Notes under the pieces: generated by a model
Told to the model about the DNA's origin: nothing
Seen by the model: the letters and a program-made list of their open reading frames with translations, nothing else
The model's database searches: none
Part shown: positions 2,475 to 43,667 of the stretch, in pieces
Layout of the letters: each line of letters starts with the position of its first letter
Position numbering within the stretch: position 1 is the first letter of the stretch
DNA from: Bacteroidia bacterium
GTDB taxonomy: Bacteria; Bacteroidota; Bacteroidia; AKYH767-A; OLB10
DNA length: 55,324 nucleotides
Assembly: GCA_044448905.1 (NCBI GenBank)
Contig: JBIOHJ010000002.1
Coordinates: 1-55,324, forward strand
Direction of reading: 5' to 3'
Made by a program: the position numbers and the translations under genes

Positions 2475-2501
2475 ACTTTAAACTTTAAACCTTAAACTTT
2501 C
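2475..2501. repeat. heptanucleotide array ACTTTAA x4 (degenerate)
   Basis: actttaa|actttaa|accttaa|actttc begins 4 nt from the M61 start codon (2469-2471, minus strand). In gene orientation it reads AGTTTAA units upstream of the ATG. Confidence 0.8.
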
Positions 2502-2539
2502 TATTTATCTTCGCACAGCAAAAATAAAAATATAGTGAT

Positions 2540-3928
2540 ATGAATTACGATGTTATTGTGATTGGCAGCGGACCGGGCGGATATGTTGCAGCAATTCGCG
2601 CATCACAACTTGGAATGAAAACAGCAATTGTTGAAAAGGCTGAGCTCGGTGGGGTCTGCCTTAACTGGGGATGCATACCTACAAAAGCGTTATTGAAGAG
2701 TGCACAGGTGTATGAATATTTGTTACACGCTCAGGATTACGGATTGAAAGCAAGCGGAGTGGACAAGGATTTTACAGCAATTGTAAAACGCTCTCGTGGA
2801 GCGGCAGATAAAATGAGCAAAGGAGTTCAATTCCTGATGAAGAAAAATAAAATTGATGTGATTACCGGAACCGGGAAAATAAAGCCAGGAAAAAAGGTTT
2901 CTGTAAACGGTACCGACAACAAGGAAACCATTTATGAAGCCAAACACATTATCCTTGCTACCGGAGCCCGCTCACGCGAATTGCCAAGCTTAAAACAAGA
3001 TGGAAAAAAAATTATCGGCTACCGCGAAGCGATGATTTTGGAAAAACAACCAGCCAGTATGGTTATAGTTGGCTCTGGTGCCATCGGAAGTGAATTTGCA
3101 TATTTTTATAATGCATTGGGAACAAAAGTTACTCTTGTTGAGTTTTTGCCAAACATTGTTCCGGTTGAAGACGAAGAAGTTTCAAAAGCTTTAGAACGGT
3201 CTTTCAAAAAGCAAGGCATTGCAGTAATGACTTCTTCGGAAGTATTAAGTGTTGATGCTTCAGGAGCAAATTGCAAAGTGAAAATTAAAACTCCGAAGGC
3301 AGAAGAAAATATTGAAGCTGAAATTGTATTGAGTGCAGTAGGAATTACAGCTAACCTTGAAAATATTGGGTTGGAGGAAACAGGAATCGCGACCGATAAA
3401 GGAAAAATTTTAGTGAATGATTTTTATCAAACGAACATGCCGGGTTATTATGCAATTGGTGATATTGTTCGGGGTCCTGCACTGGCACATGTCGCTTCTC
3501 ATGAAGCGATTACCTGCGTTGAAAAAATTGCAGGCTTGCATGTTGAGCCGATTGACTACAATAATATTCCCGGGTGTACCTATTGCCAACCTGAAATAGC
3601 TTCAGTAGGAATGACAGAAAAAGCCGCAAAAGAAAAAGGCATTGAAATAAAAGTAGGGAAATTTCCATTCAGTGCTTCGGGTAAAGCAAGTGCTGCAGGC
3701 AATAATGAGGGATTTGTAAAAGTAATTTTCGATGCAAAGTATGGTGAGTGGCTGGGCGCCCATATGATTGGCGCAAATGTAACTGAGATGATAGCCGAAG
3801 TGGTGGCTGCTCGTAAACTTGAAACTACAGGGCACGAAATAATTAAAACTATTCATCCTCATCCAACCATGAGCGAAGCAATTATGGAAGCTGTTGCCGA
3901 AGCATACGGTGAGGTTATTCATATTTAG
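2540..3928 (+). CDS. lpdA: dihydrolipoyl dehydrogenase
   Basis: 462 aa with FAD motif GSGPGGY, redox disulfide GGVCLNWGCIPTK and C-terminal HPHPTMSE. Confidence 0.95.
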   Translation: MNYDVIVIGSGPGGYVAAIRASQLGMKTAIVEKAELGGVCLNWGCIPTKALLKSAQVYEYLLHAQDYGLKASGVDKDFTAIVKRSRGAADKMSKGVQFLMKKNKIDVITGTGKIKPGKKVSVNGTDNKETIYEAKHIILATGARSRELPSLKQDGKKIIGYREAMILEKQPASMVIVGSGAIGSEFAYFYNALGTKVTLVEFLPNIVPVEDEEVSKALERSFKKQGIAVMTSSEVLSVDASGANCKVKIKTPKAEENIEAEIVLSAVGITANLENIGLEETGIATDKGKILVNDFYQTNMPGYYAIGDIVRGPALAHVASHEAITCVEKIAGLHVEPIDYNNIPGCTYCQPEIASVGMTEKAAKEKGIEIKVGKFPFSASGKASAAGNNEGFVKVIFDAKYGEWLGAHMIGANVTEMIAEVVAARKLETTGHEIIKTIHPHPTMSEAIMEAVAEAYGEVIHI

Positions 3929-3970
3929 TGTTTAGTTATGAGTGTTTAGTTATGAGTGTTTAGTTATGAG
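3929..3970. repeat. 14-bp tandem repeat x3 (TGTTTAGTTATGAG, i.e. two 7-mers)
   Basis: Three perfect copies start 1 nt after the lpdA stop TAG (3926-3928). This is the left arm of an inverted repeat with 4093-4115. Confidence 0.9.
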
Positions 3971-3979
3971 ATTTTCCAG

Positions 3980-4051
3980 ATGGATGAACATTTTCGCTTT
4001 GAAGAATTAAAGGTTTATCAAAAATCTTTGGAATTTATTGATCGAGGTTAA
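3980..4051 (+). pseudogene. relic (N-terminal 23 codons) of a four-helix-bundle / 23S rRNA intervening-sequence protein gene
   Basis: ATG 3980 translates to MDEHFRFEELKVYQKSLEFIDRG*. It matches the conserved N-terminus (F.eLkVwQKs.ef) of TIGR02436/PF05635 proteins, which normally have more than 110 aa. Confidence 0.55.
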
Positions 4052-4092
4052 ACCTCTGAACAATAAACTATAGTTATTTTTTTTAAATACTA

Positions 4093-4115
4093 CACACTCA
4101 CAACTAAACACTAAA
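4093..4115. repeat. right inverted arm of the lpdA/asnB junction hairpin
   Basis: The reverse complement tttagtgtttagttgtgagtgtg matches 3924-3946 (tttagtgtttagttatgagtgtt) at 21/23. It ends directly at ATG 4116. Confidence 0.85.
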
Positions 4116-6053
4116 ATGTGCGGAATTGTTGGTATAGTTTCAAAATCAGAAAAAGGAAATATTTTCCTTGATAAAATTTCCGTAGCAACTGATTGCCTTG
4201 CAAAACGAGGTCCTGATAACTCAGGAATTTTTAAGCATAACAACCTTGCGTTAGGCCATCGGAGGCTTTCTATTATAGATGTCTCGAGTGCAGGAGCACA
4301 GCCGATGAGTGACCCTTCGGGGAGGTTTACTATTATTTTTAATGGTGAATTTTTCAATTTCAGAGAACACCGAAGTTTTCTTTTATCAAAGGGTATTAAC
4401 TTAGTTTCGGAAAGCGATACTGAAGTTTTATTGCACCTTTTTATTCTGGAAAAAGAAAAATGTCTCGAAAGACTTAATGGGTTTTTTGCAATGGCTGTTT
4501 ATGATAAGCAGGAAGAGGTGTTATTTCTTGCCCGCGATCGTTTTGGAGTTAAGCCGTTATTAATTTATGAAGATGAAAATGCATTTATGTTTTCTTCTGA
4601 GATGAAAGCGCTGCTTGAGCTTGGAATTAAAAAAGAGCTGGATGAAGCTTCCCTCCTCTCCTACTTTCAGTTGAATTATATTCCACAGCCATATTCTATT
4701 TTTAAAAAAGTAAGAAAGCTCAAACCAGGCTCGTACCTGAAATTTTCAGCAAGACATAAAAAAATAATTGAAGAAAAGTTATTCTATCAAATTCCCTATT
4801 CTGAGAACATTTCAAATATTATTTCCTATGATGATGCAAAAGATAAATTGTATCAGTTAATGGATGCCGCTGTTCAGCGCAGACTGATAAGCGATGTGCC
4901 GCTGGGTTCATTTTTAAGCGGTGGAATTGATTCATCTGTAATTTCCGCTTTAGCAGCACAGCATACTACACACCTTAAAACATTTTCAATTGGTTTTCGT
5001 GATGAACCTATGTTTGATGAAACAAGATATGCGCAGCTGGTTGCAAAAAAGCATAACACAGAACACACTGTTTTCAGTTTAACAAATGATGATTTATTCG
5101 AAGTACTTCATGATGTACTTAATTATATTGACGAACCGTTTGCAGATTCCTCAGCGTTGAATGTTTTTATTTTAAGCAAACAGACACGTAAACATGTAAC
5201 GGTTGCTTTGAGCGGTGATGGCGCTGATGAATTGTTTGGAGGTTATAATAAACACCGTGCTGAATGGATGATTCGTAACGATGTATTTTTTACATCTTCA
5301 ATGAAAATTCTTTCACCTTTATTAAATTTTTTCTCCGGTTCGCGCAATTCAAAATATGGAAACAAGCTAAGACAAATTCACCGTTTCGCAGATGGAACAA
5401 AGTTTTCTTCTGCTGAAAGATATTGGAGATGGTGTGGGTTTGTTGATGAGCGTGCGGCTGAGTATATATTTTTAAACGCGGAGACGCAATGGCGTAAAGA
5501 ATACAAGGAAAGAAAAGATAAAGTAATAAAACACATTATCGGAAATAAGGATTTAAATGATGTACTGCTCGCTGATATGAATTTAGTCTTGCAGGGCGAC
5601 ATGTTAACCAAAGTTGATATGATGAGTATGGCCAACAGCCTGGAAGTTCGTACACCGTTTCTTGATTACGAGGTAGTAAATTTTGCATTTTCACTCCCCT
5701 CCTCTTATAAGATTGACAAAAGTGTTCAGAAAAAAATTGTAAAAGAAACATTCAGGCATTTACTGCCTGATGAAATATTTAATCGCAGCAAACAAGGATT
5801 TGAAGTTCCTTTATTAAAATGGTTTCGCACCGAATTAAAATCAATGATTACTGATGATTTACTGAATGATGATTTTATCCGCCAGCAAAATTTATTTAAT
5901 GTTGAAGAAATTAAAAAATTAAAACAGCAGCTCTTCTCCAATAACCCGGGTGAAATAAGTGCGCGCATTTGGGGACTGATTGTTTTTCAATACTGGTGGA
6001 AAAGGAATATGATTTATTCCGATAATTATCGGGATGAAAATGTGTTAATTTGA
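4116..6053 (+). CDS. asnB: asparagine synthase (glutamine-hydrolysing) family amidotransferase
   Basis: 645 aa with N-terminal MCGIVG (Ntn Cys2) and PP-loop SGGIDSS. It sits next to polysaccharide genes. Confidence 0.9.
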   Translation: MCGIVGIVSKSEKGNIFLDKISVATDCLAKRGPDNSGIFKHNNLALGHRRLSIIDVSSAGAQPMSDPSGRFTIIFNGEFFNFREHRSFLLSKGINLVSESDTEVLLHLFILEKEKCLERLNGFFAMAVYDKQEEVLFLARDRFGVKPLLIYEDENAFMFSSEMKALLELGIKKELDEASLLSYFQLNYIPQPYSIFKKVRKLKPGSYLKFSARHKKIIEEKLFYQIPYSENISNIISYDDAKDKLYQLMDAAVQRRLISDVPLGSFLSGGIDSSVISALAAQHTTHLKTFSIGFRDEPMFDETRYAQLVAKKHNTEHTVFSLTNDDLFEVLHDVLNYIDEPFADSSALNVFILSKQTRKHVTVALSGDGADELFGGYNKHRAEWMIRNDVFFTSSMKILSPLLNFFSGSRNSKYGNKLRQIHRFADGTKFSSAERYWRWCGFVDERAAEYIFLNAETQWRKEYKERKDKVIKHIIGNKDLNDVLLADMNLVLQGDMLTKVDMMSMANSLEVRTPFLDYEVVNFAFSLPSSYKIDKSVQKKIVKETFRHLLPDEIFNRSKQGFEVPLLKWFRTELKSMITDDLLNDDFIRQQNLFNVEEIKKLKQQLFSNNPGEISARIWGLIVFQYWWKRNMIYSDNYRDENVLI

Positions 6054-6124
6054 AAATTATGCATTTAGTTTGCTTTAGAAACTTTTTCATTTCATTCTTA
6101 AATTAATTTACTCTCAAACTATTT

Positions 6125-7312: not shown

Positions 7313-7369
7313 TTCATACAAAATTCAAACCGGAATACGTTTAGAAGTAAGCCGCTATCTAAATTTATT

Positions 7370-7377
7370 TATTTTTG
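7370..7377 (+). promoter_or_regulatory. -7 promoter box TATTTTTG
   Basis: Matches TAnnTTTG, 16 nt upstream of ATG 7394. Confidence 0.3.
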
Positions 7378-7393
7378 TTCAAAATTTAATTCT

Positions 7394-8173: not shown

Positions 8174-10576
8174 ATGGCAAAAAAGAAAATCACTCCTATA
8201 AACGAGGATTTTGATTTAAAACTTTTCGCAACCATTGCAAAAAAGAATTTTGCATGGTTTGTTAGTTTTATTTTTTCATCGTTTGTCATTGCATTTCTTT
8301 ATCTCCGCTACAACCCTCCGGTTTATGAAGCGGGAACGATAATTAAAATTTCAACCGAAAATCAAGCCGGCCAGATTTTAAATAATAACCGGGATTATTT
8401 TACAGATCAATATACTAATCAGATTGCCGGAGATATTGAACTAATCCGTTCTAAAATAATAGCTGAACGCGCTGTAAAACAACTTCCGTTAAGCGTAAAT
8501 TATTACGCCAAGGGAACGGTGTTGGATATGGAACTTTATAAGTCCTCGCCATTTACCGTTGAAGCCGAAATAAAAGATTCTTCGGTTTATAATAAGCCGT
8601 TCTACCTGGAATTTGATAACAAGTTGTCTTTTGCGCTTTCATTTTCCGAAAAAGCCACCAGCAAGTCCACGCAACATCGGATTAATGAATGGATTGATTT
8701 ACCCGATGTACGATTTAAAGTGGTGGTTACTGACTATGCAAATGTTATGGATCAGCAGCACCAGTTTCAAAAAGAACCTTTTTATTTCATCTTAAGAAAT
8801 GAGGCTGATGTTGCCAGGAGTATTTCAGGCATGCTATCAGTTAGTGTTTTAAACCCTGAAGCTAAAACGATATCCGTAAAACTAAAAGATAAAAGTTCAG
8901 CAAAAGCTGCAGATATTGTTAATATTATTTCGAATGAATTTATTGATTATGATGTGGAAAAAAGCCGTGAGGTAACCAATAAAATTCTCCAGTTCATTAA
9001 TCTTACCATCTCATCGGTTGAGTCTGATCTGGACAATTCTGAAGGCTCAATAGAAAATTTCAGGCGTGCAAATAAATTGATGGATCCTTCAATGGTTGTT
9101 AACCAGATTTCGAATAAAATATGGGACCTTCAAAATAAAAAAATAGACCTTCAGATTGAACACAATATTTATGAAACACTGATAAATGATGTTCTGGCAA
9201 ATAAAGAAATCAGCCAGATGATTCTAAGTATTGTCGGCAAATACAAAGAAAATCAGATTACCAATGCTATTGTCAAATTACAGGAGTTGGTAAATATCCG
9301 CGAAACCACATTAATCCAGGGAACTACCGAAACAGAGATTTATAAAGCCGCCAGCAAAGCGGCTGACAATCAAAAAGAGTTTCTGATCAGTCTCATCCGA
9401 AACCAGCAGGAAGTATTGGGGGATGAAATGAAAAAAGTAAACGAGCAGCTTTCGCAGTTTGATGGCATCTTTGCTACTATGCCCGGCAAACAAGCTCAGT
9501 ACAGCAGGCTTGAAAGATTATTTTCGATTAACGAAAAATTTTATTCGTTGCTTTTGGAAAAGAAAGCTGAGTTTTCTATTGCTGCTGCCGGGTTTGTTGC
9601 TCAAAATCTTTTGCTCGAACCGGCATCAGCATTTACATCACCGGTTTCTCCAAACCGTACATTGGTAATCAGCGTTTGTTTATTGCTCGGTTTTATTGCC
9701 AGTTTCCTGTTAATAATCGTTCGATATCTTTTTTATAATGAAGTTTCATCGCTCGAAGAAATCGAAATGTATACCGATGCTGCATTGCTGGGAATTATTC
9801 CTAAATATAAACGCGAAATTCCAATCTCCCAGTTATTGGTGGATAAAAATCCTAAATCGGTTATAGCGGAAGCTTTCCGTTCAATCCGAACCAATCTCCA
9901 GTTTATTTCCAATGATGAAGGCTCTAAAGTAATTGCGGTTACTTCTACTATTTCTGGCGAAGGCAAAACGTTTAATGCAATTAACCTTGCGGGTGTAATT
10001 GCTTTTTCGGGTAAAAAAGTAGTTATCCTTGATCTTGACATGAGAAAACCCAAAATCCATCTTGGTTTTAACGTTGAAAACAGCCACGGCATCAGCACCC
10101 TGCTGATAGGAAAAGATAAACCTGAAGATTGTATAATAAAAAGTACGCTTGAGAATCTTGACTTTATTACAGCTGGACCTGTGCCTCCCAATCCAAGCGA
10201 ATTGATTATTAATCCACGCATGGATGAATTGCTCAATTATCTCAGAAAAATTTACGACATTATTATAATAGATACGCCACCGGTTGGGATTGTGAGCGAT
10301 GGTATTCCGATTATTCAAAAGGTTGACTACCCGCTTTATATTGTCCGTGCAAATTATTCGCGTAAAATGTTTATTCATAATATTAATAAGATGATTAACG
10401 AAAACAAGGTAACCAACCTGTCAATAATTCTTAATGGTGTTGAAATGCAGAAATTAAAATACGGATATGGTTACGGATACGGATATGGTTACGGATATGG
10501 TTACGGATATTATGAAGAAGATCAAACCGAGCCAACAGTATTTGATCGTATTAAAAAAGTTTTCAGGAAAAACTAA
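8174..10576 (+). CDS. Wzc-like chain-length determinant / tyrosine autokinase
   Basis: 800 aa with two TM segments flanking a long coiled periplasmic region. It has Walker A TSTISGEGKT, A' VVILDLDMRKP, B IIIIDTPPVG and a C-terminal Tyr cluster YGYGYGYGYGYGYGYGYY. Confidence 0.9.
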   Translation: MAKKKITPINEDFDLKLFATIAKKNFAWFVSFIFSSFVIAFLYLRYNPPVYEAGTIIKISTENQAGQILNNNRDYFTDQYTNQIAGDIELIRSKIIAERAVKQLPLSVNYYAKGTVLDMELYKSSPFTVEAEIKDSSVYNKPFYLEFDNKLSFALSFSEKATSKSTQHRINEWIDLPDVRFKVVVTDYANVMDQQHQFQKEPFYFILRNEADVARSISGMLSVSVLNPEAKTISVKLKDKSSAKAADIVNIISNEFIDYDVEKSREVTNKILQFINLTISSVESDLDNSEGSIENFRRANKLMDPSMVVNQISNKIWDLQNKKIDLQIEHNIYETLINDVLANKEISQMILSIVGKYKENQITNAIVKLQELVNIRETTLIQGTTETEIYKAASKAADNQKEFLISLIRNQQEVLGDEMKKVNEQLSQFDGIFATMPGKQAQYSRLERLFSINEKFYSLLLEKKAEFSIAAAGFVAQNLLLEPASAFTSPVSPNRTLVISVCLLLGFIASFLLIIVRYLFYNEVSSLEEIEMYTDAALLGIIPKYKREIPISQLLVDKNPKSVIAEAFRSIRTNLQFISNDEGSKVIAVTSTISGEGKTFNAINLAGVIAFSGKKVVILDLDMRKPKIHLGFNVENSHGISTLLIGKDKPEDCIIKSTLENLDFITAGPVPPNPSELIINPRMDELLNYLRKIYDIIIIDTPPVGIVSDGIPIIQKVDYPLYIVRANYSRKMFIHNINKMINENKVTNLSIILNGVEMQKLKYGYGYGYGYGYGYGYGYYEEDQTEPTVFDRIKKVFRKN
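10460..10513 (+). repeat. 12-bp tandem repeat (TACGGATATGGT-like) encoding the (YG)8 tyrosine tail
   Basis: About 4.5 near-identical copies inside the 3' end of the Wzc-like gene. Confidence 0.85.
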
Positions 10577-11220: not shown

Positions 11221-12322
11221 ATGGAAAATTTTTTATCTATACATTATTATAAAATTATTTATTGCGTATTTTTTGTTTGCTCAGTAAGCTTTTCATTTTT
11301 AATGAACAGTCTTTTCCTGCGGTTTTTCTCCACACTTGGCATTCGCAATCAAAATGACGGTACCATTATACGTTGGGGCGCGCAAAGCAAGCCGGCAATT
11401 GGCGGATTATCATTTTATATTTTGTTTCTGATTTCGGTTGCGAGCTATTCTTTTTTCTTTAAACCCACACAGGTTTTTTATAACATGCAGTTTGTGGGGC
11501 TGCTTATTGCAATGGCAATAGGTTTTATTATCGGGTTATATGATGACGCGTATGATACGAGGCCGTTTTTAAAATTTTTCGCCCAGCTGTTGTGCGGGCT
11601 GGCGCTGGTTTTTTCAGGAATGTATATTAAAATTTTTTCTGATGATTACCTCAACTACCTGTTTACTTTGTTTTGGGTGGTGGGCATTATGAATTCGATT
11701 AATATGCTCGATAATATGGATGCTATTACCACGATTGTGGGAATTAATATTGTGATGGGCTCCATCCTGATGATTGTTATTCATAACGATTTTGAAAACA
11801 TGCACCTTATTGTTTTGGTTGGGGTGCTTTCTGCGATGTTTGGTTTTTTATATTACAACTGGCACCCTTCGAAAATGTATATGGGCGATACGGGCAGCCA
11901 GTTCCTGGGTATTTTCCTTGCGGCAATGGGCATTATGTATTTCTGGAATGATAATTATGAGTTGCAAACTCACTCGCAGGCAAAACAATTTATTACGGCT
12001 GTGCTGGCATTTATAATGCCCATATTTAGATACTACGGTGGTTGTTATTAACCGGCTGAGGAAACGAACTTCGCCTTTTGTGGGCGGCAAGGATCATACT
12101 ACTCATGCGTTAGCCATGCTGGGAATGAGCGACCGAGTGGTAGCCATTACTTTTGCCATACTTTCGTTTGTTTCACTTTGTTTGATATATGTGATGAATG
12201 TATATATCCTTGACTGGACGCATACCTATACTGTTATATTTTCAATCTATATACTTACCCTGCTGGGTAGTTTTTTTTATATAACTACAAAAGCGAAGGG
12301 TAAGAAGCTTAAAAAAGTGTAA
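11221..12322 (+). pseudogene. WecA/MraY-family (GT4 polyprenyl-phosphate sugar-1-P transferase) gene with a +1 frameshift near 12019-12024
   Basis: Frame 1 (276 aa) carries NMLDNMDA and MGDTGSQFLG and stops at 12049. Frame 2 reads ..PYLDTTVVVINRLRKRTSPFVGGKDHTTH.. from 12020 to 12322, the expected continuation. The junction lies at a CCC run. Confidence 0.75.
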
Positions 12323-12324: not shown

Positions 12325-13251
12325 TTAGTTTTTTACAAACTTTTTTCTCACCCCGTTTATCTCAATAAAATATATTCCGCTTTTTAAGGATTGAATATTG
12401 ATTATTGAAGATTGAAAATTGATTGCGGATTTTAATATTTCTTTTCCCATCATATCATAAATTTTTATTTCTTTTTCCTGAACATTGAACATTGAACATT
12501 GAACTTTTAACTCCTCTCCTGCCGGGTTTGGTGAAATGGTAAATGTGGAAGTGTTATTTGATGTTTCGTTTATGCCGGTGCATAGTGTTAGGGAGACATC
12601 GTCAATATATATATAAGCTCCATGAAAAGCTTCAGAAGTATCTGTTATGACGCTTGTATTTGCATCATCTTTGAAATTTCCGATAATTAAATAATTTTCT
12701 CCTCCGGTGGCAGTGTAGTTACCGCTTATTAAAACCCAATTTATTGTATCTGATATGAATCCGGTAGTATTAATAAGCTGAGGGATATAGACTAAAAGCG
12801 AATCATTATTGATACCATCAATTAACGTATCGGAAAAATAAATACCTATATCATCAGTAATGCTTTGAACCTTATCGGGTGCATTAACATACATTTCAAA
12901 ATGATAACAGGCATTGGCAATTAATGGCGAAATAAAATTTGCTTCTATATATTCCCGGTAATTTGGGAATGCGCTGTCAGCAATAAGTACTATACCGCAA
13001 TAAGCGCCTCCACTATGCGCTTGCTGAGAACCTAATATGTTATCAGGAACACCTACAAATTGGCTACCACATTGATTATAATAATCTACTGAAGCTGCTG
13101 TTGGATTAATCCAAAATAATACAGAATCAAACTGATTCAAACTTGTCGGACATCCTATGTACCCCTCAAACCCCCCATTCGGCACTAAATTTTGCCCCCA
13201 TCCCACGAAAGTGGTTGAAAGTAAAAATAAGATGAATAAATATTTTTTCAT
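12325..13251 (-). CDS. T9SS type A sorting-domain protein (cargo of unknown function), paralog A
   Basis: 308 aa with signal MKKYLFILFLLSTTFVGWGQ, N-terminal NLVPNGGFE.Y.GCP motif, and C-terminal SPNPAGEEL...IKIYDMMGKE...SGIYFIEING CTD. Confidence 0.8.
   Translation of the reverse strand: MKKYLFILFLLSTTFVGWGQNLVPNGGFEGYIGCPTSLNQFDSVLFWINPTAASVDYYNQCGSQFVGVPDNILGSQQAHSGGAYCGIVLIADSAFPNYREYIEANFISPLIANACYHFEMYVNAPDKVQSITDDIGIYFSDTLIDGINNDSLLVYIPQLINTTGFISDTINWVLISGNYTATGGENYLIIGNFKDDANTSVITDTSEAFHGAYIYIDDVSLTLCTGINETSNNTSTFTISPNPAGEELKVQCSMFNVQEKEIKIYDMMGKEILKSAINFQSSIINIQSLKSGIYFIEINGVRKKFVKN
12390..12431. repeat. heptanucleotide array ATTGANN x6 inside CTD coding sequence
   Basis: attgaat|attgatt|attgaag|attgaaa|attgatt|gcggatt; encodes ..SAINFQSSIINIQSL.. 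on the minus strand. Confidence 0.8.
12479..12504. repeat. heptanucleotide array TGAACAT x3.5 inside CTD coding sequence
   Basis: tgaacat x3 then tgaact; encodes VQCSMFNVQ on the minus strand. Confidence 0.85.
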
Positions 13252-13265: not shown

Positions 13266-14225
13266 CTACCGGCAGGTAGATTTTACAAACTTTTTACGCA
13301 CCCCGTTTATTTCAATAAAATATATTCCGCTGTTTAAAGATTGAATATTGATTATTGAAGATTGAAGATTGATTGCGGATTTTAAAACTTCTTTTCCCAT
13401 CATATCATAAATTTTTATTTCTTTTTCCTGAACATTGAACATTGAACATTGAACATTCAATTCTTCTCCTGCCGGGTTTGGTGAAATGGTAAATGAGGAA
13501 GTGTTATTTGATGTTTCGTTTATGCCGGTTGCGCAGGGGGTGAGGGAGACATCGTCAATGTATAAATATATTCTATTATCAGTTGAGGAGCTATTAACAA
13601 CTATTGTATCAGTATTCATGTCGTCTTTAAAATTTCCAATTATTAGAAAACTTTCTCCTCCCTGAGCAATATAATTTCCACCAACTAAAGTCCAATTTGA
13701 TGAGTCAGGATTATTTCCTGTTATATTGTTAAATTGTGGAGTAAAAGGTAACGGAAGATAATTATTTATCCCTGTAATTGCTGAAACAGAAAAATAGGCG
13801 CCTATTGCATCAGTTGTATATTTAAAAATATCCGCAAGGCTAACTTTCATTTCGAAATGATAACAATTATTAATAATTAAAGATGATATTAAAGGAACCT
13901 CGATATATTCACGATAATTGGCATCATCCGATGAGAAAAGATAAATTCCACAATATGCATTACCGCTTTGTGTTATTTGATAACCAAAAACATTTGAAGG
14001 AACTCCAGCAATTCCATTGCTATTGCAACTATTAAAATAATCTGGTGTACCCGAAATCAGATATATGTTCGTAGCCGGATTCATCCAGAATAAACAAGAA
14101 TCCAGTTGCGCTAAAGAAGGTGGGCATCCCGAATACTGCTCAAACCCCCCATTCGGCACCAAATTTTGCCCCCATCCCACCAAAGTGGTTGATAATAAAC
14201 ATAATAAAAGGGTGAATTTTCTCAT
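13266..14225 (-). CDS. T9SS type A sorting-domain protein, paralog B
   Basis: ATG at 14223-14225 gives MRKFTLLLCLLSTTLVGWGQ (the track start 14234 is a TTG). It has the same architecture as paralog A, and the last ~95 aa are nearly identical. Confidence 0.8.
   Translation of the reverse strand: MRKFTLLLCLLSTTLVGWGQNLVPNGGFEQYSGCPPSLAQLDSCLFWMNPATNIYLISGTPDYFNSCNSNGIAGVPSNVFGYQITQSGNAYCGIYLFSSDDANYREYIEVPLISSLIINNCYHFEMKVSLADIFKYTTDAIGAYFSVSAITGINNYLPLPFTPQFNNITGNNPDSSNWTLVGGNYIAQGGESFLIIGNFKDDMNTDTIVVNSSSTDNRIYLYIDDVSLTPCATGINETSNNTSSFTISPNPAGEELNVQCSMFNVQEKEIKIYDMMGKEVLKSAINLQSSIINIQSLNSGIYFIEINGVRKKFVKSTCR
13340..13381. repeat. heptanucleotide array ATTGANN x6 (copy in paralog B)
   Basis: attgaat|attgatt|attgaag|attgaag|attgatt|gcggatt. 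Confidence 0.8.
13429..13456. repeat. heptanucleotide array TGAACAT x4 (copy in paralog B)
   Basis: Four perfect tgaacat units. Confidence 0.85.
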
Positions 14226-14240
14226 CAAAGCCAATTTAAC

Positions 14241-14408
14241 TTCTGGAAAATCTCCGTTTTCTTCTGGAAAATCTCCGTTTTCTTCTGTAAAAACTCTGTT
14301 TTCTTCTGAAGAATTTCTGTTTTCTTCTGTAAAAACTCTGTTTTCTTCTGGAGAATCTATGTTTTCTTCTGTAGAATTCCTGTTTTCTTCTGTAAAGAAA
14401 CCCTTTTT
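14241..14408. repeat. 8 x 21-bp tandem array (conserved core GTTTTCTTCTG, variable 10 nt)
   Basis: Units: ttctggaaaatctccgttttc (x2), ttctgtaaaaactctgttttc, ttctgaagaatttctgttttc, ttctgtaaaaactctgttttc, ttctggagaatctatgttttc, ttctgtagaattcctgttttc, ttctgtaaagaaaccctttttt. The array fills the gap between the stop of 14418-15359 and the start of 13266-14225. Confidence 0.9.
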
Positions 14409-22905: not shown

Positions 22906-23379
22906 ATGAAATTATTTTACAAAATCATTGCTGCCGGTTTTGGAAGTGGCTTTTCACCCATTGCCCCCGGAACGGTTGGCAGTTTGGTTGGATGCTTCCT
23001 TGTTTTTCTCCTCAATTCATTTCTTCCATCTGAAAATTATTTTTTTCAATTGTGCATTGTGCATTGTGGATTGTGCATTCTATTTCTCATCATCGGAATT
23101 ATTTCAATAAACAATTTACAAAGTGAATGGGGTCACGATTCACCAAAGTTTACCGTTGATGAAATTGCCGGCATGTTAATTTCTGTTTTGTTCATTCCAT
23201 TTTCATGGCAAAATATTTTAATCGGGTTTGTGCTGTTCCGTTTCTTTGATATTTTAAAACCCTTTGGCATCCGGCAGCTCGAAAAAGTGCATGGCGGTTG
23301 GGGAGTGATGCTTGATGATGTTCTTGCGGGGATTTTTGCGAATATAATTCTGCAAATAAGTTTACGATTTATTTTTTAA
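22906..23379 (+). CDS. pgpA: phosphatidylglycerophosphatase A family (candidate PIP phosphatase)
   Basis: 157 aa with GSGFSPIAPGTVGS, VDEIAG, FRFFDILKP and MLDDVLAG motifs. Confidence 0.85.
   Translation: MKLFYKIIAAGFGSGFSPIAPGTVGSLVGCFLVFLLNSFLPSENYFFQLCIVHCGLCILFLIIGIISINNLQSEWGHDSPKFTVDEIAGMLISVLFIPFSWQNILIGFVLFRFFDILKPFGIRQLEKVHGGWGVMLDDVLAGIFANIILQISLRFIF
23050..23077. repeat. heptanucleotide array TTGTGCA x4 inside pgpA
   Basis: ttgtgca|ttgtgca|ttgtgga|ttgtgca; encodes QLCIVHCGLCI within a hydrophobic segment. Confidence 0.85.
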
Positions 23380-26023: not shown

Positions 26024-26115
26024 TTACAACTAAATCAATCTTGGTATTAACACTGTGTTAATAATTTAATCTTTGCCATCCGTATTTTATTAACGAGTTT
26101 TGTGCGCAACCTCCA

Positions 26116-26136
26116 ACTGTAAACTGTAAACTTTGA
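26116..26136. repeat. heptanucleotide array ACTGTAA x3
   Basis: actgtaa|actgtaa|actttga; the last unit contains the TTG start at 26133. Confidence 0.75.
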
Positions 26137-26975: not shown

Positions 26976-26976
26976 A

Positions 26977-28401
26977 ATGAGAGTATCAAGTATCAGGTAT
27001 CAAGTATCAAGACTCACTAAGTTCTTGTTTACTAAAAAAATTTTTTTGTCTTGCTACTTGATACTTGCTACTAATGTCTCCATCTCCCAAAAACGTCCTG
27101 AACAACCCCGACAATTAACACGTATCCTCTTCCTCTTCGATGCTTCGCAAAGCATGTTGGCTCAGTGGCAAAGTAATTCGCGGTTTATAATTGCAAAAAA
27201 AATGCTTGGCGAAATGGTTGACAGTTTGCAGCAACTGGACAATCTTGAATTGGCTTTAAGAGTATATGGGCATCAAAAACCATTTCCTCCGCAGGATTGC
27301 GATGATACAAAGCTCGAAGTTCCTTTCGGAAGCTTAAACGGATTTGAAATCAAAAAACGGTTAAATGAAATAAAAGCCAGCGGTACCACTCCCATTGCAT
27401 TGTCATTGGAACAATGTGGAAAAGATTTTCCGGAAACACCTTCACGAAACATTATCATTTTAATTACCGATGGCATTGAAGAATGTAACGGTGATCCGTG
27501 TGCCGTTTCCTACCAGTTGCAAAAAAGAGGAATTGTTTTAAAACCTTTTGTGATTGGAGTAGGAGCAACAAAGGATTTCGCCAAAGCGTTTGAATGCGTG
27601 GGAAATTATTACGATGCTGCCGAAGAAAGTTCTTTCAAAGCAGTTTTTAATGTGGTGATTTCGCAAGCGCTCAATAATACAAGCATGCAGGTAAACCTGC
27701 TTGATGTTTATGGCAAGCCAACTGAAACAAATGTAGGAATGACTTTTTACGATGTGTTTTCAGGAGCCATCCGTTACAATTATATTCACACCATGAATGC
27801 AAAAGGCGTTCCCGATACCGTTAAAGTTGATCCGTTAAGCACATATAAAATTGTTGTGCATACGTTGCCTTCTGTCAGTAAAGACAGTGTGAAAGTTGTT
27901 CCCGGCAAGCATACCATTGTAGGCATTGACGCACCGCAGGGTGATTTACTGTTGAAGCTCGAAGGGTCGAGCGATTACAGGAACCTGCAGGCAATTGTCC
28001 GCAAGCATAATGAAATGCCAACGCTTAATGTGCAATCCTTCAACATCAAAGAAAGATATTTAATTGGCAAATACGATTTGGAAATACTTACGCTTCCGCG
28101 AATGTATATTGGCAATGTTGACATCTCGCAAAGCAAAACAACAACTGTAGAAATTCCCAAACCCGGCATTGCGACTCTCATTGCAAACAATCCAGGCTAC
28201 GGAGGAATTTATGTGGAAGAAGACAATAAGCTGAAATGGATTTACAGCATGGATGAAAATTTATCGCGCGAAAGCGTGGTGCTGCAACCGGGAAAATATC
28301 ATGCTGTTTTCCGCCCCAAAAATTCGAGAGAAAGCATTTATACTGTGGATAAAATATTTCGTATAGCCAGCGGAGCCTCTATTTCAGTGAACCTTTATTA
28401 A
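26977..28401 (+). CDS. von Willebrand factor A domain protein
   Basis: ATG 26977 lies 1 nt after the tktN stop. An alternative in-frame TTG at 27025 would give MFTKKIFLSCYLILATNVSISQ. MIDAS-like LFLFDASQSM precedes a VWA fold segment (..ITDGIEECNGDP). Confidence 0.75.
   Translation: MRVSSIRYQVSRLTKFLFTKKIFLSCYLILATNVSISQKRPEQPRQLTRILFLFDASQSMLAQWQSNSRFIIAKKMLGEMVDSLQQLDNLELALRVYGHQKPFPPQDCDDTKLEVPFGSLNGFEIKKRLNEIKASGTTPIALSLEQCGKDFPETPSRNIIILITDGIEECNGDPCAVSYQLQKRGIVLKPFVIGVGATKDFAKAFECVGNYYDAAEESSFKAVFNVVISQALNNTSMQVNLLDVYGKPTETNVGMTFYDVFSGAIRYNYIHTMNAKGVPDTVKVDPLSTYKIVVHTLPSVSKDSVKVVPGKHTIVGIDAPQGDLLLKLEGSSDYRNLQAIVRKHNEMPTLNVQSFNIKERYLIGKYDLEILTLPRMYIGNVDISQSKTTTVEIPKPGIATLIANNPGYGGIYVEEDNKLKWIYSMDENLSRESVVLQPGKYHAVFRPKNSRESIYTVDKIFRIASGASISVNLY
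26982..27072. repeat. heptamer-built hairpin (AGTATCA x5 arm, inverted AGTAGCA/AGTATCA arm)
   Basis: 26989-27013 matches the reverse complement of 27048-27072 at 22/25. The loop is 27014-27047. Confidence 0.8.
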
Positions 28402-32344: not shown

Positions 32345-32379
32345 ATCAAACATCAAACTTTAAACTTCAAACTCAAAAA
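32345..32379. repeat. heptanucleotide array (ATCAAAC/TTTAAAC/TTCAAAC) x5
   Basis: atcaaac|atcaaac|tttaaac|ttcaaac|tcaaaaa; ends 1 nt before ATG 32381. Confidence 0.8.
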
Positions 32380-38215: not shown

Positions 38216-38236
38216 AAAAAAACAATTGTTTATTGA

Positions 38237-39371: not shown

Positions 39372-39416
39372 TTACTTAACACCTTAATCTCCAAATTACT
39401 TTTTTCTATATTTCAT

Positions 39417-40028: not shown

Positions 40029-40134
40029 GATTTTTTCTTATTCACATCACCCCCTTAAAACTTTTTACTAATTTTAAACAATCTTAGTGCAGGTAATTTA
40101 TAATATTGTATTCTTCAGCATTTGAATTCTTGAA

Positions 40135-42579
40135 ATGAAACATTTTTATAGAAAGATATTTCTCTTACTGTTCATCTTTTCATTTGCTGCAAATGTAAAG
40201 GCAACACATATTGTGGGTGGAGAATTGTATTATGAATTTATAAACCCACTCACAAATACATATCGCATTACATTGGTCGTATACCGCGACTGTTATACTG
40301 GTGTTCCCCCATTCGACCCGGTTGCATCAATAGGAATTTTCAACCAGTTTAACCAACTATATACCGAATTGTGTGTAAGTGTCAGCCCCGATTCGATAAC
40401 CATTCCTCCTACAATCGTTTCTCCCTGTTTTATTCCTCCTACAGATGTTTGTTATCGTAAAGCTTATTACACAACTACTGTAAATTTACCTCCCGTTCAG
40501 GGTGGATACCAGCTTTCATACCAACGCTGCTGTCGTAATTACTCTATTTTGAATATTCAGACTCCGCTCGATGTCGGCATTACGATTTACGCAACTATTC
40601 CCGGTACAGGAAATCATCAAAACAGCAACCCGGTCTTTGATACGATTCCTCCGCCAAATGCAACTCATCCCATATTACCGCCCCCATTCCTTTGTTTAGG
40701 TGTACCGTTTGTTTGGGATAATTCTGCCATTGATGCAGATGGTGATTCTTTAGTTTATGAATTGTGCCAGCCTTTTGTTGGTGCTGAAAATATCGCCTGT
40801 GGTGCAGCTCCCTGCGGTTTCTCATTAACATGCGGACCGGTTCCACATCCTCCTTTTAATCCTCCCTATTCCAGTGTGCAATGGCAAACGCCTTTTTCGC
40901 TTGGAAATTTACTTGGCGGGATACCTTTATCTATCAACCCGGTTACAGGAATTTTGACCTGTACGCCAAACACCATCGGGCAGTTTGTAATTGGTGTCTG
41001 TGTAAATGAATACAGGAATGGAGTGTTTTTGAGCAAAACGAGAAGAGATTTTCAACTGAATGTAGTGCCATGTCCTTCGCTGGTTGTAGCAGCTTTACAA
41101 TCACCGATAGTTAATTGCATTGACTCAACAGTAATATTTCTAAATCAAAGTATCGGTGCGGGGAGTTACTTCTGGAATTTCGGTGACCCTACTCAAACAA
41201 ATGACACTTCGCATGCAGTGAGCCCCACATATACTTATCCTGACACAGGAACTTATATTGTAACTTTAATAGCTTATTCAAGCTTTAATCCTGGTTGTGC
41301 TGATACCACCACGGGAGTGTTTCACATCTTTCCTCCTTTCGATGCCGATTTTTCATTTTCTCAAACAGCCTGCTCTTATACAATTAATTTTTTCGATACC
41401 ACTATTAATAATGGGGGAGGAACAACTTCAATCTGGAACTGGACGTTCGGTGATGGTACAACTTCAGTGCTGCAAGACCCAGTTCATACGTACAATAATG
41501 CGGGGACTTATACAGTTACTTTGTATGCTACTTCCAATCGGGGATGCGAAGACACAATAGTAAAAACCGTGCAGGTTTTATCTCTTCCGTCTCTACAAAC
41601 AAACCTTGCCAAGCCGGTGAGTTGCACGAACGATTGTGATGCTTCGGCTACCGCATTACCTTCTGGCGGAACCCCTCCTTATTCTTATCAATGGAACGAT
41701 CCGAATAACCAGACCACACAAACGGCAACCAACCTTTGTTCGGGTACATATACAGTTCTTGTTACTGATTCAAATGGTTGTACCGCATCAATATTAATCT
41801 CTATCAGTAATCCACCACCCTTGTCATTAAATGTTTCTTCAACTGATGCATATTGCGGTGGAAGATGTTATGGAACTGCAACAGTTAGCCCTTCTGGGGG
41901 AACCCCGCCTTACGGTTACATTTGGAACGATCCGCAAAGTCAAACCACTCAAATGGCGATCGGTCTATGCGTGGATAGTTTTACAGTAGTTATTACGGAT
42001 GCTCATGGTTGCACAAAAACGGATAGTGTGGCAGTGCACTACAGTGACTACATTCCACCGCTTAATGCAACAGTGAGCGATGATACAATTTTTGAAGGGC
42101 AAACTGTTCAGATTATTTCTACTGTTTATATGAACGGAACCTATACATGGAATCCTCCAACAGGATTAAGCAGTACAATCATTAGCAACCCTACTGCAAC
42201 TCCTCCTGTTTCTTTTATAACTTATGTTGTAGAATATGTTGACAGCAATGGCTGCGAAAACAGGGATTCAGTAAATATTGTTGTGAGAAATGTAACCTGT
42301 GTTGAGCCTGAGTTATTTATTCCAAATGCATTTACCCCTAACAGTGACAATAATAACGATATACTTTATGTACGCGGAAATACAATTAAGGAATTACTCT
42401 TCAGAATTTATAACCGCTGGGGTGAAAAAGTTTTTGAAACAGTAAATCCCGGTCAGGGATGGGATGCCACATATAAAGGAAAATCTGTAATGCCCGGTGT
42501 GTATGATTATTATTTTGAAGCCACATGTTATGATAATAATAAATTTTTTAAGAAAGGAAACGTAACGGTAATAAAATGA
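40135..42579 (+). CDS. T9SS type B (gliding-motility-associated C-terminal domain) surface protein with PKD and SprB-type repeats
   Basis: 814 aa with N-terminal THIVGGELYYE..YRDC module, two PKD-like repeats (WNFGD..., WTFGDG...), two SGGTPPY..W repeats, and the C-terminal IPNAFTPNSDNNNDILYV...NRWGEKVF...GWD...PGVYDYY domain. Confidence 0.85.
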   Translation: MKHFYRKIFLLLFIFSFAANVKATHIVGGELYYEFINPLTNTYRITLVVYRDCYTGVPPFDPVASIGIFNQFNQLYTELCVSVSPDSITIPPTIVSPCFIPPTDVCYRKAYYTTTVNLPPVQGGYQLSYQRCCRNYSILNIQTPLDVGITIYATIPGTGNHQNSNPVFDTIPPPNATHPILPPPFLCLGVPFVWDNSAIDADGDSLVYELCQPFVGAENIACGAAPCGFSLTCGPVPHPPFNPPYSSVQWQTPFSLGNLLGGIPLSINPVTGILTCTPNTIGQFVIGVCVNEYRNGVFLSKTRRDFQLNVVPCPSLVVAALQSPIVNCIDSTVIFLNQSIGAGSYFWNFGDPTQTNDTSHAVSPTYTYPDTGTYIVTLIAYSSFNPGCADTTTGVFHIFPPFDADFSFSQTACSYTINFFDTTINNGGGTTSIWNWTFGDGTTSVLQDPVHTYNNAGTYTVTLYATSNRGCEDTIVKTVQVLSLPSLQTNLAKPVSCTNDCDASATALPSGGTPPYSYQWNDPNNQTTQTATNLCSGTYTVLVTDSNGCTASILISISNPPPLSLNVSSTDAYCGGRCYGTATVSPSGGTPPYGYIWNDPQSQTTQMAIGLCVDSFTVVITDAHGCTKTDSVAVHYSDYIPPLNATVSDDTIFEGQTVQIISTVYMNGTYTWNPPTGLSSTIISNPTATPPVSFITYVVEYVDSNGCENRDSVNIVVRNVTCVEPELFIPNAFTPNSDNNNDILYVRGNTIKELLFRIYNRWGEKVFETVNPGQGWDATYKGKSVMPGVYDYYFEATCYDNNKFFKKGNVTVIK

Positions 42580-43637
42580 GTTTAAAGTTCAAGATTCAAA
42601 GTTCAAAGTTTTTGTTTCCGGTTTACGGTTTCAGAATTTTGTCTTCTCTCATTTGTCTTTTGTTATTTGCCTTTTCTAATGCCCAGGACATTCACTTTTC
42701 TCAATTCACCAAATCACCTTTGAATCTGAATCCGTCATACACAGGTCTTTTCGATGGCGATTTTCGGTTTGGAGGAATTCATCGCAACCAGTGGAAATCA
42801 GTGACGGTTCCTTATAAAACATTTTCAGGATATTTTGATATGAATACTGCTCTCGCAAATAGTAAAGACAGCCGCATAGGTGCGGGCATTTTGATTAATA
42901 ATGATAAAGCCGGAGATTCGGAATATGGAATTACCGGAGCAGCACTATCTGGTTCCATGATTAAAAGTCTCGGCAGTGATGCTGTGCATTTTCTTTCGGG
43001 TGGATTGCAGTTAGGATTTGTTCAGCAAAGCTTTAATTATTCAAAACTCACTTTTGATAACCAGTTTAACGGAGATGTTTTTGATCCGACAATTCCTGTT
43101 TCTGAAAATTTTACCGATGATAAATATATTTATTTCGATTTATCAGCCGGCATAGGATGGATGTACACGGTGAATGAAAAACTAAACCTCGGGGCTGGCG
43201 TGGGTATATTTCATATCAACAAACCGAAGCAGACTTTTATGAATGATGAGGATTCGAAACTTGACCAGAAAATTTCTTTTGATGCGCGCAGCATGATTGC
43301 TGTTCATGAAAAGGTTTATCTGTTGCCTGGAATTTTATTTTCCACCCAGGATAAATTTCAGGAGTTCGATTTGGGAAGCAATGTGAAATTTATTCTCAAT
43401 GAAAATCCTGGAAAAAAAATCAACCTGTATGCAGGGGGATTTGTTCGTACCAAAGACGCGATTATTTTTTCTGCCGGGTTTGATTACAATGAGTTGAACT
43501 TCGGTTTCAGCTATGATATGAACACTTCCGATTTGAAGCGAGCAAGCAACAACCGTGGTGGATACGAAGTTTCACTCACTTACATTATTAAAAAAGTAAA
43601 ACCGGTCGGTATTCATCCGCCATGCCCGGTTTACTGA
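42576..43637 (+). CDS. PorP/SprF family T9SS membrane protein
   Basis: 353 aa with AQDIHFSQFTKSPLNLNPSYTG and a C-terminal GGYEVSLTY beta-barrel end. Its ATG overlaps the upstream stop (ATGA). Confidence 0.85.
   Translation: MSLKFKIQSSKFLFPVYGFRILSSLICLLLFAFSNAQDIHFSQFTKSPLNLNPSYTGLFDGDFRFGGIHRNQWKSVTVPYKTFSGYFDMNTALANSKDSRIGAGILINNDKAGDSEYGITGAALSGSMIKSLGSDAVHFLSGGLQLGFVQQSFNYSKLTFDNQFNGDVFDPTIPVSENFTDDKYIYFDLSAGIGWMYTVNEKLNLGAGVGIFHINKPKQTFMNDEDSKLDQKISFDARSMIAVHEKVYLLPGILFSTQDKFQEFDLGSNVKFILNENPGKKINLYAGGFVRTKDAIIFSAGFDYNELNFGFSYDMNTSDLKRASNNRGGYEVSLTYIIKKVKPVGIHPPCPVY
42579..42676. repeat. about 14 consecutive heptanucleotide units in one register covering the PorP/SprF N-terminus
   Basis: agtttaa|agttcaa|gattcaa|agttcaa|agttttt|gtttccg|gtttacg|gtttcag|aattttg|tcttctc|tcatttg|tcttttg|ttatttg|ccttttc. 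Confidence 0.7.
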
Positions 43638-43639
43638 AA

Positions 43640-43667
43640 GATTTAAAGTTTAAAGTTTAAAGTTTTT
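43640..43667. repeat. heptanucleotide array AGTTTAA x4
   Basis: gatttaa|agtttaa|agtttaa|agttttt, lying between the PorP stop (43635-37) and ATG 43669. Confidence 0.85.

Follow-up and report, generated by a model that had tools for sequence, protein, structure and literature searches.

Heptamer arrays in a Bacteroidia contig

The window studied here, a 55,324-nt stretch of a Bacteroidia bacterium genome (GenBank assembly GCA_044448905.1, contig JBIOHJ010000002.1, positions 1 to 55,324), carries short tandem arrays with an exact 7-nt period, both in the spacers beside genes such as lpdA, asnB and tktN (one half of a split transketolase) and inside coding sequence. An earlier note on this DNA had listed ten such arrays, and all ten are real: Tandem Repeats Finder (TRF) and direct reading of the sequence place each of them at, or within a few bases of, the position given there. 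The arrays are heptanucleotide tandem repeats of the class that includes short tandemly repeated repetitive (STRR) sequences, long simple sequence repeats (LSSR) and the TAACTGA repeats. Across Bacteroidota, arrays of this kind gather around small genes of the PF05635 family, where they form the two arms of a hairpin.

TRF returned 48 rows for the window, 22 of them with a period of 7 or 14. Array counts were made with a lag-identity detector of our own at score cut-offs of at least 12 and at least 10, and the window (GC content 37.7%) was compared with 100 dinucleotide-preserving shuffles of itself, a control for which the earlier note had called. At a score of at least 12 the window holds 7 period-7 arrays against a shuffle mean of 0.02 and a maximum of 1, an excess of about 350-fold; at a score of at least 10 it holds 9, with 0.21 expected from the shuffles. 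Other periods gave no array at a score of at least 12 (4 to 6, 8 to 11, 13 and 15) or one each (12 and 14), the lone period-14 hit being the array at 3927. Period 7 is the sole enriched period among those from 4 to 15, and the claim that codon structure does not produce the arrays is supported. Three two-copy TRF rows (1256, 45221 and 53327) are at chance level.

The arrays cluster at gene boundaries, as had been proposed: intergenic DNA makes up 8.8% of the window and holds 5 of the 9 arrays that score at least 10, and the arrays at 32345, 43637 and 4089 each end 1 nt before an ATG. The repeat unit had been written as WGTNNNN, but GTTYNNR, or its complement, fits better. AGTTYAA-type units occur at six of the ten listed sites, and AGTGTTT, AGTATCA, ATTGTGC and ATTGANN are also present in the 55 kb of this genome that were seen. 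An Rfam scan of the window found only a tRNA and no RNA family at any array; the window contains no rRNA.

Two hairpins in the window and an intact module beside it

The list of arrays holds as far as it goes, but it had overlooked two partner arms, at 4089-4115 and 27050-27072, with which two of the listed arrays form hairpins. In the first, between lpdA and asnB, the 5' arm ((AGTGTTTAGTTATG)x3.1, 3924..3970, + strand; TRF, inverted repeat and folding) overlaps the lpdA stop codon TAG at 3926-3928, and the 3' arm (ACTACACACTCACAACTAAACACTAAA, 4089..4115, + strand) ends 1 nt before the asnB ATG at 4116. Positions 3924-3950 pair with 4089-4115 over 27 nt with 93% complementarity. The RNA fold of 3920-4118 reaches -55.3 kcal/mol (z -6.8), and its closing stem extends from the lpdA stop codon to 1 nt short of the asnB ATG.

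The loop of this hairpin holds the remnant of an open reading frame (ORF; 3980..4051, + strand), whose 23-codon peptide, MDEHFRFEELKVYQKSLEFIDRG*, is probably the N-terminal relic of a PF05635 gene: residues 3-19 align to positions 3-19 of the family hidden Markov model (HMM). As an a-priori test this alignment gives E 4.6e-4, a score reached by 8 of 5000 shuffles. In a blind HMM scan of the whole window the peptide was the second-best fragment and not significant (E 3.1), and a search against Pfam gave no hit for it. On this sequence evidence, 3924-4115 is probably a decayed PF05635 module, with marginal support for the gene relic itself.

The second hairpin (26982-27072), at the junction of tktN and a VWA-domain gene, has no ORF inside. 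Its 5' arm ((AGTATCA)x4.3, 26982..27016, + strand) begins 6 nt past the tktN stop, and its 3' arm ((CTTGCTA/CTTGATA)x3.3, 27050..27072, + strand) falls where the VWA gene putatively encodes its signal peptide. Positions 26982-27004 pair with 27050-27072, and the RNA fold of 26976-27076 has an energy of -29.5 kcal/mol (z -5.25). The VWA-domain gene itself (start 26977 or 27025, end 28401) sits between the halves of a split transketolase, tktN (26133-26975) and tktC (28432-29415). The two sites are those for which the earlier note had guessed at footprints of a hairpin-forming insertion cassette; the hairpins are there, but the idea of insertion holds only in part, since modules look vertically inherited and at least one solo array was amplified in situ, as described below.

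An intact module lies just outside the window. A second assembly, GCA_025450795.1, contains two contigs, L001 and L168 (contigs and loci are referred to by such numbers throughout), that match the window at 99.7% and 99.96% identity, and L001 reaches 5.7 kb past the window start. At 4170-4559 of L001, about 1.2 kb upstream of the window, is a complete PF05635 gene of 129 aa (Pfam PF05635, 23S_rRNA_IVP, E 3e-31; TIGR02436, 'four helix bundle protein', E 1.6e-28), to which the solved structure nearest by sequence is 2GSC. The gene is flanked by (TAGTGTT)x7 on one side and by AAACGCT, AAACCCC, AAACTCT and AAACGCA on the other, the AAACGCT-type units being the reverse complement of NNNGTTT units. 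The module, 536 nt in length, folds with a closing stem between its two arms (z -3.8).

Heptamer arrays flank PF05635 genes across Bacteroidota

A survey with the L001 PF05635 protein, made against one genome per species, yielded 80 Bacteroidota loci (52-62% identity; 684,772 nt). These loci contain 117 period-7 arrays, compared with 38 for the next commonest period that is not a multiple of 7. Of the 117, 82 are no more than 150 nt away from the PF05635 gene. Counted by locus, an array of period 7 or 14 is found within this distance at 58 of the 80, and on both sides of the gene at 34. Some of the seemingly distant arrays flank additional PF05635 paralogues (L046 2749-3150, L050 766-1128, L067 2463-2822). 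With all PF05635 ORFs mapped, period-7 arrays reach a density of 1.91/kb up to 300 nt from an ORF, compared with 0.036/kb outside this range, a 53-fold difference; periods 8 and 10 are mildly raised near the ORFs (0.32 and 0.16 per kb), far below period 7.

The two arrays of a locus match each other. When the upstream flank was compared with the reverse complement of its own downstream flank, the median score was 18, against 8 for cross-locus comparisons, and 69% of loci lay above the 95th percentile of the cross-locus scores. Since the two arrays are mutually complementary, they close a long hairpin whose loop contains the ORF, an arrangement known from the intervening sequences (IVS) of the S23p type in 23S rRNA. 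The arms are also polar, with GTT in 36 of 40 upstream arrays and AAC in 35 of 41 downstream arrays (12-14% for random heptamers), and the logo of the arm unit reads G-T-T-(T/C)-N-N-(A/G), that is, GTTYNNR. The AGTTYAA family found at six sites of the window also builds PF05635 arms in other Bacteroidota. The order, GTT arm first, is the same on both strands and so belongs to the hairpin, whichever way the gene points.

Modules are co-oriented with both neighboring genes in 58 of 66 cases. Median distances are 4 nt from the upstream stop codon to the start of the 5' arm and 13.5 nt from the end of the 3' arm to the next ATG. The arrays at start and stop codons to which the earlier note had drawn attention are there because the module fits the operon spacer precisely. 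All copies seen lie between protein-coding genes, not in helix 9, 25 or 45 of 23S rRNA. The neighbors inspected were housekeeping genes such as purK-purE, lepA and Fe-S assembly genes, and nrdA-nrdB. The arrangement purK, module, purE is common to several Chitinophagaceae loci.

Two observations on individual loci may be added. At L039 (5622-6949), dinB, which encodes the Y-family polymerase IV, lies directly downstream of a PF05635 module, with direct AACCTGN heptamer arrays on both sides. Four contigs with Bacteroidota-like PF05635 modules (L008, L018, L060 and L075) are labeled as metagenome-assembled genomes of Paceibacterota, Agrobacterium, Cloacimonadales and Bifidobacteriaceae, labels that may reflect binning contamination or horizontal transfer.

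Complementary arms around PF05635 genes in other phyla

A tblastn search against plasmids turned up genes annotated as 'four helix bundle protein' in Nostoc, Geminocystis and Riemerella, and six of these were inspected. Complementary short-repeat arrays flank all six on both sides, and the period is clearly 7 in four. The arms are (AGTAGGG/AGTGGGG)n and (CCCTACT)n in Nostoc edaphicum, (AAGGGAA)n and (TTCCCTT)n in Geminocystis, and (GGTTTAA/GGTTCAA)n and its complement in Riemerella. N. punctiforme and Nostoc sp. C052 have (AGTCAGG/AGTCAGA)n, for which the downstream complement is only a short stretch, and Nostoc sp. ATCC 53789 (L162) has purine-rich GGGAAAA-type arms with an irregular period of about 6-7 nt. 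The arm units of these plasmid copies are STRR-like. A similar layout has been described in the 23S rRNA of Coxiella, where an S23p IVS has a 28-bp terminal stem with a PF05635 ORF in its loop, two or three tandem GACAGAT heptamers (the number varies between strains) upstream of the ORF, and an RNase III cleavage site at the first heptamer repeat (PMC4990558).

Inheritance, change in length and decay

All pairs of PF05635 genes with more than 75% nucleotide identity have homologous flanks, and the gene is conserved like its neighbors or better; between L064 and L078, for example, it is 95.5% identical, against 84-88% for the neighboring genes. Because similar PF05635 genes sit in homologous flanks, we conclude that the modules are vertically inherited. 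Recent mobility of the module was also considered, and we found no evidence for it and no near-identical copies in different contexts. Array length changes in 7-nt steps: single 7-nt indels distinguish the arms of L064 from their orthologues in L078, and other orthologous pairs keep their copy number at about 85% nucleotide identity. L078 also carries a gene-less heptamer mini-hairpin where its relative L064 has an unrelated spacer, and at one junction arrays are present in L078 and L021 and absent from L064.

Loci at the lpdA junction, taken from metagenomes, served as a background set and contain 10 period-7 arrays in 500 kb. The lpdA relatives share 73-79% amino-acid identity and have mostly lost synteny, with asnB at one locus and M61 at three. 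At L092 (3677-3729) a solo array, (GTTAGAC)x7.5, separates the lpdA stop codon from an intrinsic terminator. Its closest relative, L100 (3350-3365), has a single copy (TAGACGTGAGAC) at the same site, followed by the same terminator. The L092 array is thus an amplification in situ of a local seed, with no PF05635 gene nearby. Decay is seen at L141 (4387-4840), in which a PF05635 pseudogene (HMM E 1.4e-9, with internal stop codons) lies between the arms AGTAGAA/AGTAGAT and ACTACTTCCTACT, directly after the lpdA stop codon of a relative with 75% amino-acid identity. This is the side of lpdA on which the window module lies, with a different gene downstream; no DNA or peptide homology was found between the loop of the window module and the L141 pseudogene.

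Within the organism itself the arrays are stable. L001 and L168 carry, base for base, the window arrays numbered 1-4 and 8 in the earlier list (those beginning near 2475, 3924, 12390, 12479 and 32345), and because they are identical in a second assembly, they are not assembly artifacts. Outside these arrays, 22 point differences (19 in L001 and 3 in L168), a 24-nt indel and a 1-nt indel set the two assemblies apart, and no length polymorphism was found at the five arrays compared. Absence from an independent assembly had been named as grounds for giving up the arrays; those compared are present and identical. The view that they are old or stable and not active microsatellites is borne out by this identity and by the conservation of orthologous arrays across species. 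The precedent that had been offered, phase variation of the Haemophilus influenzae hmw type, does not fit, since no length polymorphism was found.

The comparison of assemblies also brought out differences away from the heptamer arrays. At 10459-10510, within ORF 8174-10576, a coding 12/18-nt repeat (TACGGATATGGT) encodes YGYG in a Tyr-rich C-terminal tail; the protein, beside a Poly_export gene, has 800 aa in the window and 808 aa (24 nt longer) in the second assembly, and this repeat is the only length polymorphism seen between the assemblies. One extra T at window position 12025, relative to L001, splits a PF00953 glycosyltransferase that is intact in L001 (339 aa) into ORFs 11221-12051 and 12038-12322, through a frameshift or an assembly error. 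Single-nucleotide differences between the window and L001 are clustered at 2641-2665, 4842-4901 and 12175-12247, with, for example, 10 differences in 72 nt, which suggests recombination tracts or strain mixtures.

Solo arrays and coding arrays of the window

Four solo arrays fill, or nearly fill, short spacers. The array (ACTTTAA)x3.7 at 2475..2501 (TRF, sequence read), of AAC type on the + strand and GTTTAAA type on the - strand, lies between divergent genes in a spacer of 68 nt, with the M61 ATG (- strand) at a distance of 3 nt and the lpdA ATG following after 38 nt; the array is identical in L001 and unstructured as RNA. At the TTG start of tktN is a weak AAC-type array, (AACTGTA)x2.6 and a degenerate unit (26115..26136, + strand); the earlier note had listed it at 26116-26136, and it is indeed present, but with only 2.6 copies it is weak taken alone. 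A further AAC-type array at 32345..32379 (+ strand), with the units ATCAAAC, ATCAAAC, TTTAAAC, TTCAAAC and TCAAAAA, precedes the ATG of a response regulator at 32381; it is identical in L168 and likewise unstructured. The GTT-type array (AAAGTTT)x4 at 43637..43667 (+ strand) makes up the whole 31-nt spacer between the PorP stop and the ATG at 43669. As RNA, the solo arrays are unstructured overall (z +0.1 to +2.7). They tend to be of GTT type after stop codons and of AAC type before start codons, in ratios of 3:0 and 3:1 that are too few for significance.

Other arrays lie within genes. At 42579..42677 (+ strand), 14 GTT-type units encode the N-terminal 34 residues, the signal peptide, of PorP/SprF. 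The upstream TGA stop (42577-42579) overlaps the ATG at 42576, and the final base of this stop is the first of the array. That about 14 units stand in a single register, as had been claimed, is confirmed by lag identity over 42579-42677 (0.62 at lag 7 and 0.60 at lag 14, with 0.2-0.3 at other lags). In pgpA, (ATTGTGC)x4.4 (23049..23079, + strand) lies in a variable hydrophobic membrane segment, and it brings no change in length compared with homologues. A 21-nt insertion as the origin of the pgpA array is ruled out, as there is no length difference, and the suggestion that insertions of three units explain the tolerance of arrays in coding DNA is not borne out for this gene.

Two arrays lie in the C-terminal sorting domain, for the type IX secretion system (T9SS), encoded by ORF 12325-13251 (- strand): ATTGANN in about 5-6 copies at 12390..12431 (TRF; identical in L001), and (TGAACAT)x3.7 at 12479..12504, which reads GTTCAAT on the coding strand and encodes VQCSMFNVQ in a region that is less structured than shuffles (z +2.2 and +2.7). 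Paralogous copies of both are found at 13340..13381, in ORF 13266-14234 (- strand), and at 13429..13457 ((TGAACAT)x4.1), in the T9SS sorting domain of the second paralogue. The two adjacent T9SS-sorted paralogues share a 249-nt 3' end (12331-12579 and 13281-13529) as a direct repeat of 95% identity that includes both heptamer arrays; the remaining parts of the genes have diverged, and the shared end looks like the product of gene conversion or of a recent partial duplication. Nearby, at 14240-14396, a 21-nt repeat in 7.5 copies (CTTCTGTAAAATCTCTGTTTT) lies upstream of the start of ORF 14418-15359 (- strand), which has no Pfam hit. The period of this repeat is three times 7, yet no 7-nt sub-period was detected in it.

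Relation to known repeats and elements

Heptanucleotide tandem repeats have served as fingerprinting targets in cyanobacteria since about 1990, and the cyanobacterial STRR repeats were reportedly described by Mazel in that year. The statement in the earlier note that no described element class behaves in this way is wrong: heptamer repeats have been described in Cyanobacteria, Beggiatoaceae and Bacteroidetes (PMC4679880), in a Nostoc preprint, and in the S23p IVS of Coxiella (PMC4990558). Direct heptamer repeats lie a few nt from start codons in Beggiatoaceae, 15 Cyanobacteria and 5 Bacteroidetes, with a single heptamer dominating in Beggiatoa (the TAACTGA repeats); Cyanothece strains differ in such repeats by indels in 7-nt steps, and a translational regulator has been proposed (PMC4679880). 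Heptanucleotides were the commonest class of long simple sequence repeats in Mrazek 2007, as that work is summarized in PMC4679880. In Nostoc 7120, heptamer repeats or their deletion had modest effects on a reporter, and an unknown binding partner was postulated (preprint).

The arrays described here share with STRR, LSSR and TAACTGA repeats the exact 7-nt unit, the range from 2 to tens of copies, the mostly intergenic position a few nt from start codons, the occurrence in both orientations and occasionally in ORFs, the 7-nt indels between strains and the sporadic phyletic distribution. They differ in the unit, which is GTTYNNR or AGTTYAA here and TAACTGA or CCCCAGT there, and in their surroundings: the known repeats are described as free-standing, without a genetic partner, whereas most of those here are arranged as inverted pairs with a PF05635 gene between them. 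The S23p IVS of Leptospira and Coxiella (PMC4990558) likewise has a PF05635 ORF in the loop of a long inverted-repeat stem, heptamers 5' of the ORF, a strain-specific copy number that changes in 7-nt steps, and vertical inheritance once acquired. Unlike the IVS, the modules described here occupy operon spacers between protein genes, both of their arms consist wholly of heptamer arrays, and the window's own copies lack an intact ORF.

Integron attC sites have a 7-bp core, GTTRRRY, and an inverse core, RYYYAAC. Integron cassettes resemble the modules in their small promoter-less ORF, with a GTT-type element upstream and an AAC-type element downstream, in complementary elements that form hairpins, and in the 7-nt motif. 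The modules, however, enclose the ORF within the hairpin, have tandem arrays for arms, and occur singly; no integrase was evident, in the absence of a systematic scan, and there is no evidence of mobility. The hmw repeats of H. influenzae are also tandem 7-bp units upstream of surface-protein genes, but they are perfect, long and hypervariable, whereas those described here are short, with degenerate units, and do not vary between the assemblies.

The PF05635 protein is homologous to Avd of diversity-generating retroelements and has been called Avd-like (PMC10053308). Pfam bAvd hits were obtained for Nostoc (L165 and L163) and for the L050 paralogues, and none for the L001 protein. In contrast to retroelements with Avd, no reverse transcriptase and no pair of template and variable repeats was seen beside the modules, although no dedicated search for either was run. 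In a figure legend of a large clustering study, '23S rRNA IVP' appears among the proteins linked to CRISPR arrays (PMC10910872); one may speculate that flanking heptamer arrays were scored there as CRISPR-like repeats. A full-text literature search found no paper that links heptamer repeats generally to PF05635 genes, with Coxiella as the sole link found and overlap with Elhai 2008 (Nostoc small dispersed repeats) unchecked. As far as could be checked, then, the arrays are a variant of the S23p-IVS kind, and the general link to PF05635/Avd-like genes is new within the literature searched.

A PF05635 hairpin module as the probable main habitat of heptamer arrays

On balance, the arrays are probably STRR-type repeats whose main habitat in Bacteroidota is a conserved PF05635 hairpin module in the spacers between co-directional genes. 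The module consists, in order, of the upstream stop codon, (GTTYNNR)n, an ORF of about 125 aa for the PF05635/TIGR02436 (S23p, Avd-like) protein, (YNNRAAC)n and the next start codon. Of the stages of such a module, only the intact gene is missing from the window: 3924-4115 represents a decayed module and 26982-27072 a hairpin without a gene, and there are solo arrays of the same unit family.

The 7-nt steps in array length would arise by slipped-strand mispairing. By homology with the IVS of Coxiella and Leptospira, the paired arms would form a stem in the polycistronic RNA that isolates the ORF or allows its excision, possibly through RNase III, and the stem could also keep the stop and start codons of the neighboring genes adjacent to each other. 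Solo arrays may be half-modules or independent expansions, and might act at most as structure-free, A/U-rich leaders. In the window they fill short spacers or have been absorbed into weakly constrained coding sequence, namely a signal peptide, a membrane segment or a T9SS sorting domain.

Several points weigh against this picture. The window has no intact PF05635 gene, and its loop remnant is only marginally supported. The GTT/AAC core is absent from three of the ten window arrays. The density of arrays in the window is 0.16/kb, about 8 times that of unselected relatives (0.02/kb), with 0.02-0.04/kb in the non-module parts of other genomes, and the module gives no account of this excess. Nor does it offer a mechanism for a unit length of 7 nt. 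Solo arrays need not descend from modules; the one case that could be traced grew from a local seed with no gene nearby. Finally, mismatches in the arms show no asymmetry between G.U and A.C (71 versus 71); given this lack of G.U bias, selection for an RNA stem is not demonstrated, and a DNA hairpin or a shared array-generating process is equally compatible with the data.

Other explanations account for parts of the evidence. The arrays could be binding platforms for a trans-acting factor in a 7-nt register, possibly the PF05635 protein itself, in which case the gene-adjacent arrays would autoregulate PF05635, and those standing alone at start codons would make up a regulon under post-transcriptional control, as has been proposed for TAACTGA repeats. 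We consider this rather unlikely. The AGTTYAA family at six separate window sites, the dominance of one heptamer in Beggiatoa, the abutment of arrays on start codons, the altered reporter output after heptamer deletion in Nostoc with its postulated partner (preprint), the homology of PF05635 to the nucleic-acid-binding Avd, and an array-gene association that spans three phyla all speak for it. However, an array may point either way with respect to the gene downstream of it, some arrays lie within coding sequence, the unit differs between loci of one genome (AGTGTTT, AGTATCA, AGTTYAA), and a single-strand binder would not need strict complementarity of the arms. Less probable still is a mobile cassette (miniature inverted-repeat transposable element, transposon or integron) whose ends or footprints the arrays would be, with the heptamers as stacked target-site duplications or recombinase core sites. 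Inverted terminal arrays do look like transposon ends, the GTT...AAC polarity bears a likeness to integron core and inverse-core sites, and arrays are sporadic among relatives, as at the junction where L078 and L021 have them and L064 does not. Yet PF05635 pairs above 75% nucleotide identity are all in homologous flanks with no near-identical copies elsewhere, L092 and L100 document amplification in situ and not insertion, the hairpin encloses the ORF, as it does not in an attC cassette, and no transposase or integrase was seen beside the modules, though no systematic scan was made.

The arrays might also be contingency loci of the hmw kind, in which frequent slippage in copy number would switch adjacent genes. 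Short tandem repeats beside start codons and in the signal-peptide regions of surface and T9SS proteins, together with 7-nt-step indels over evolutionary time, are what such loci would show, but this explanation is very improbable: five arrays have the same copy number in two assemblies that differ by single-nucleotide polymorphisms and a 24-nt indel, unit sequences are degenerate, copy number is preserved between orthologous arrays at about the 85% nucleotide level, and many arrays lie beside housekeeping genes (lpdA, tkt, purK-purE). Chance or compositional low complexity has practically nothing left in its favor. The GC content of 37.7% and the few two-copy TRF rows at chance level would suit it, but the shuffles refute it, with 7 arrays against 0.02 expected and period 7 alone enriched, and the arrays are conserved in the second assembly.

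Beyond the hairpin module itself, PF05635 proteins and heptamer arrays could belong together as a single conserved system of protein and nucleic acid that occurs in Bacteroidota, Cyanobacteria and the Coxiella IVS, a doubtful extension that we put forward only tentatively. The protein would recognize the arrays or help to generate them in a 7-nt register, with the adjacent arrays as its cis site and the hundreds of solo STRR-type arrays at start codons as trans targets. If true, this would explain the STRRs and give the stand-alone homologues of Avd a function.

The hairpin module bears on genome annotation, as its arms can be mistaken for CRISPR-like or microsatellite arrays, can shift start-codon calls, and can be absorbed into signal peptides or sorting domains. 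It also brings together two puzzles. Heptanucleotide repeats have been catalogued in several phyla, so far without a genetic partner or a mechanism assigned to them, and the PF05635 'four-helix-bundle / S23 / IVS' proteins, stand-alone relatives of the retroelement protein Avd, are encoded by some of the most frequent small genes without an explanation in Bacteroidota and Cyanobacteria. If the repeats and PF05635 form one module, the STRR problem gains a partner, and both puzzles become testable together.

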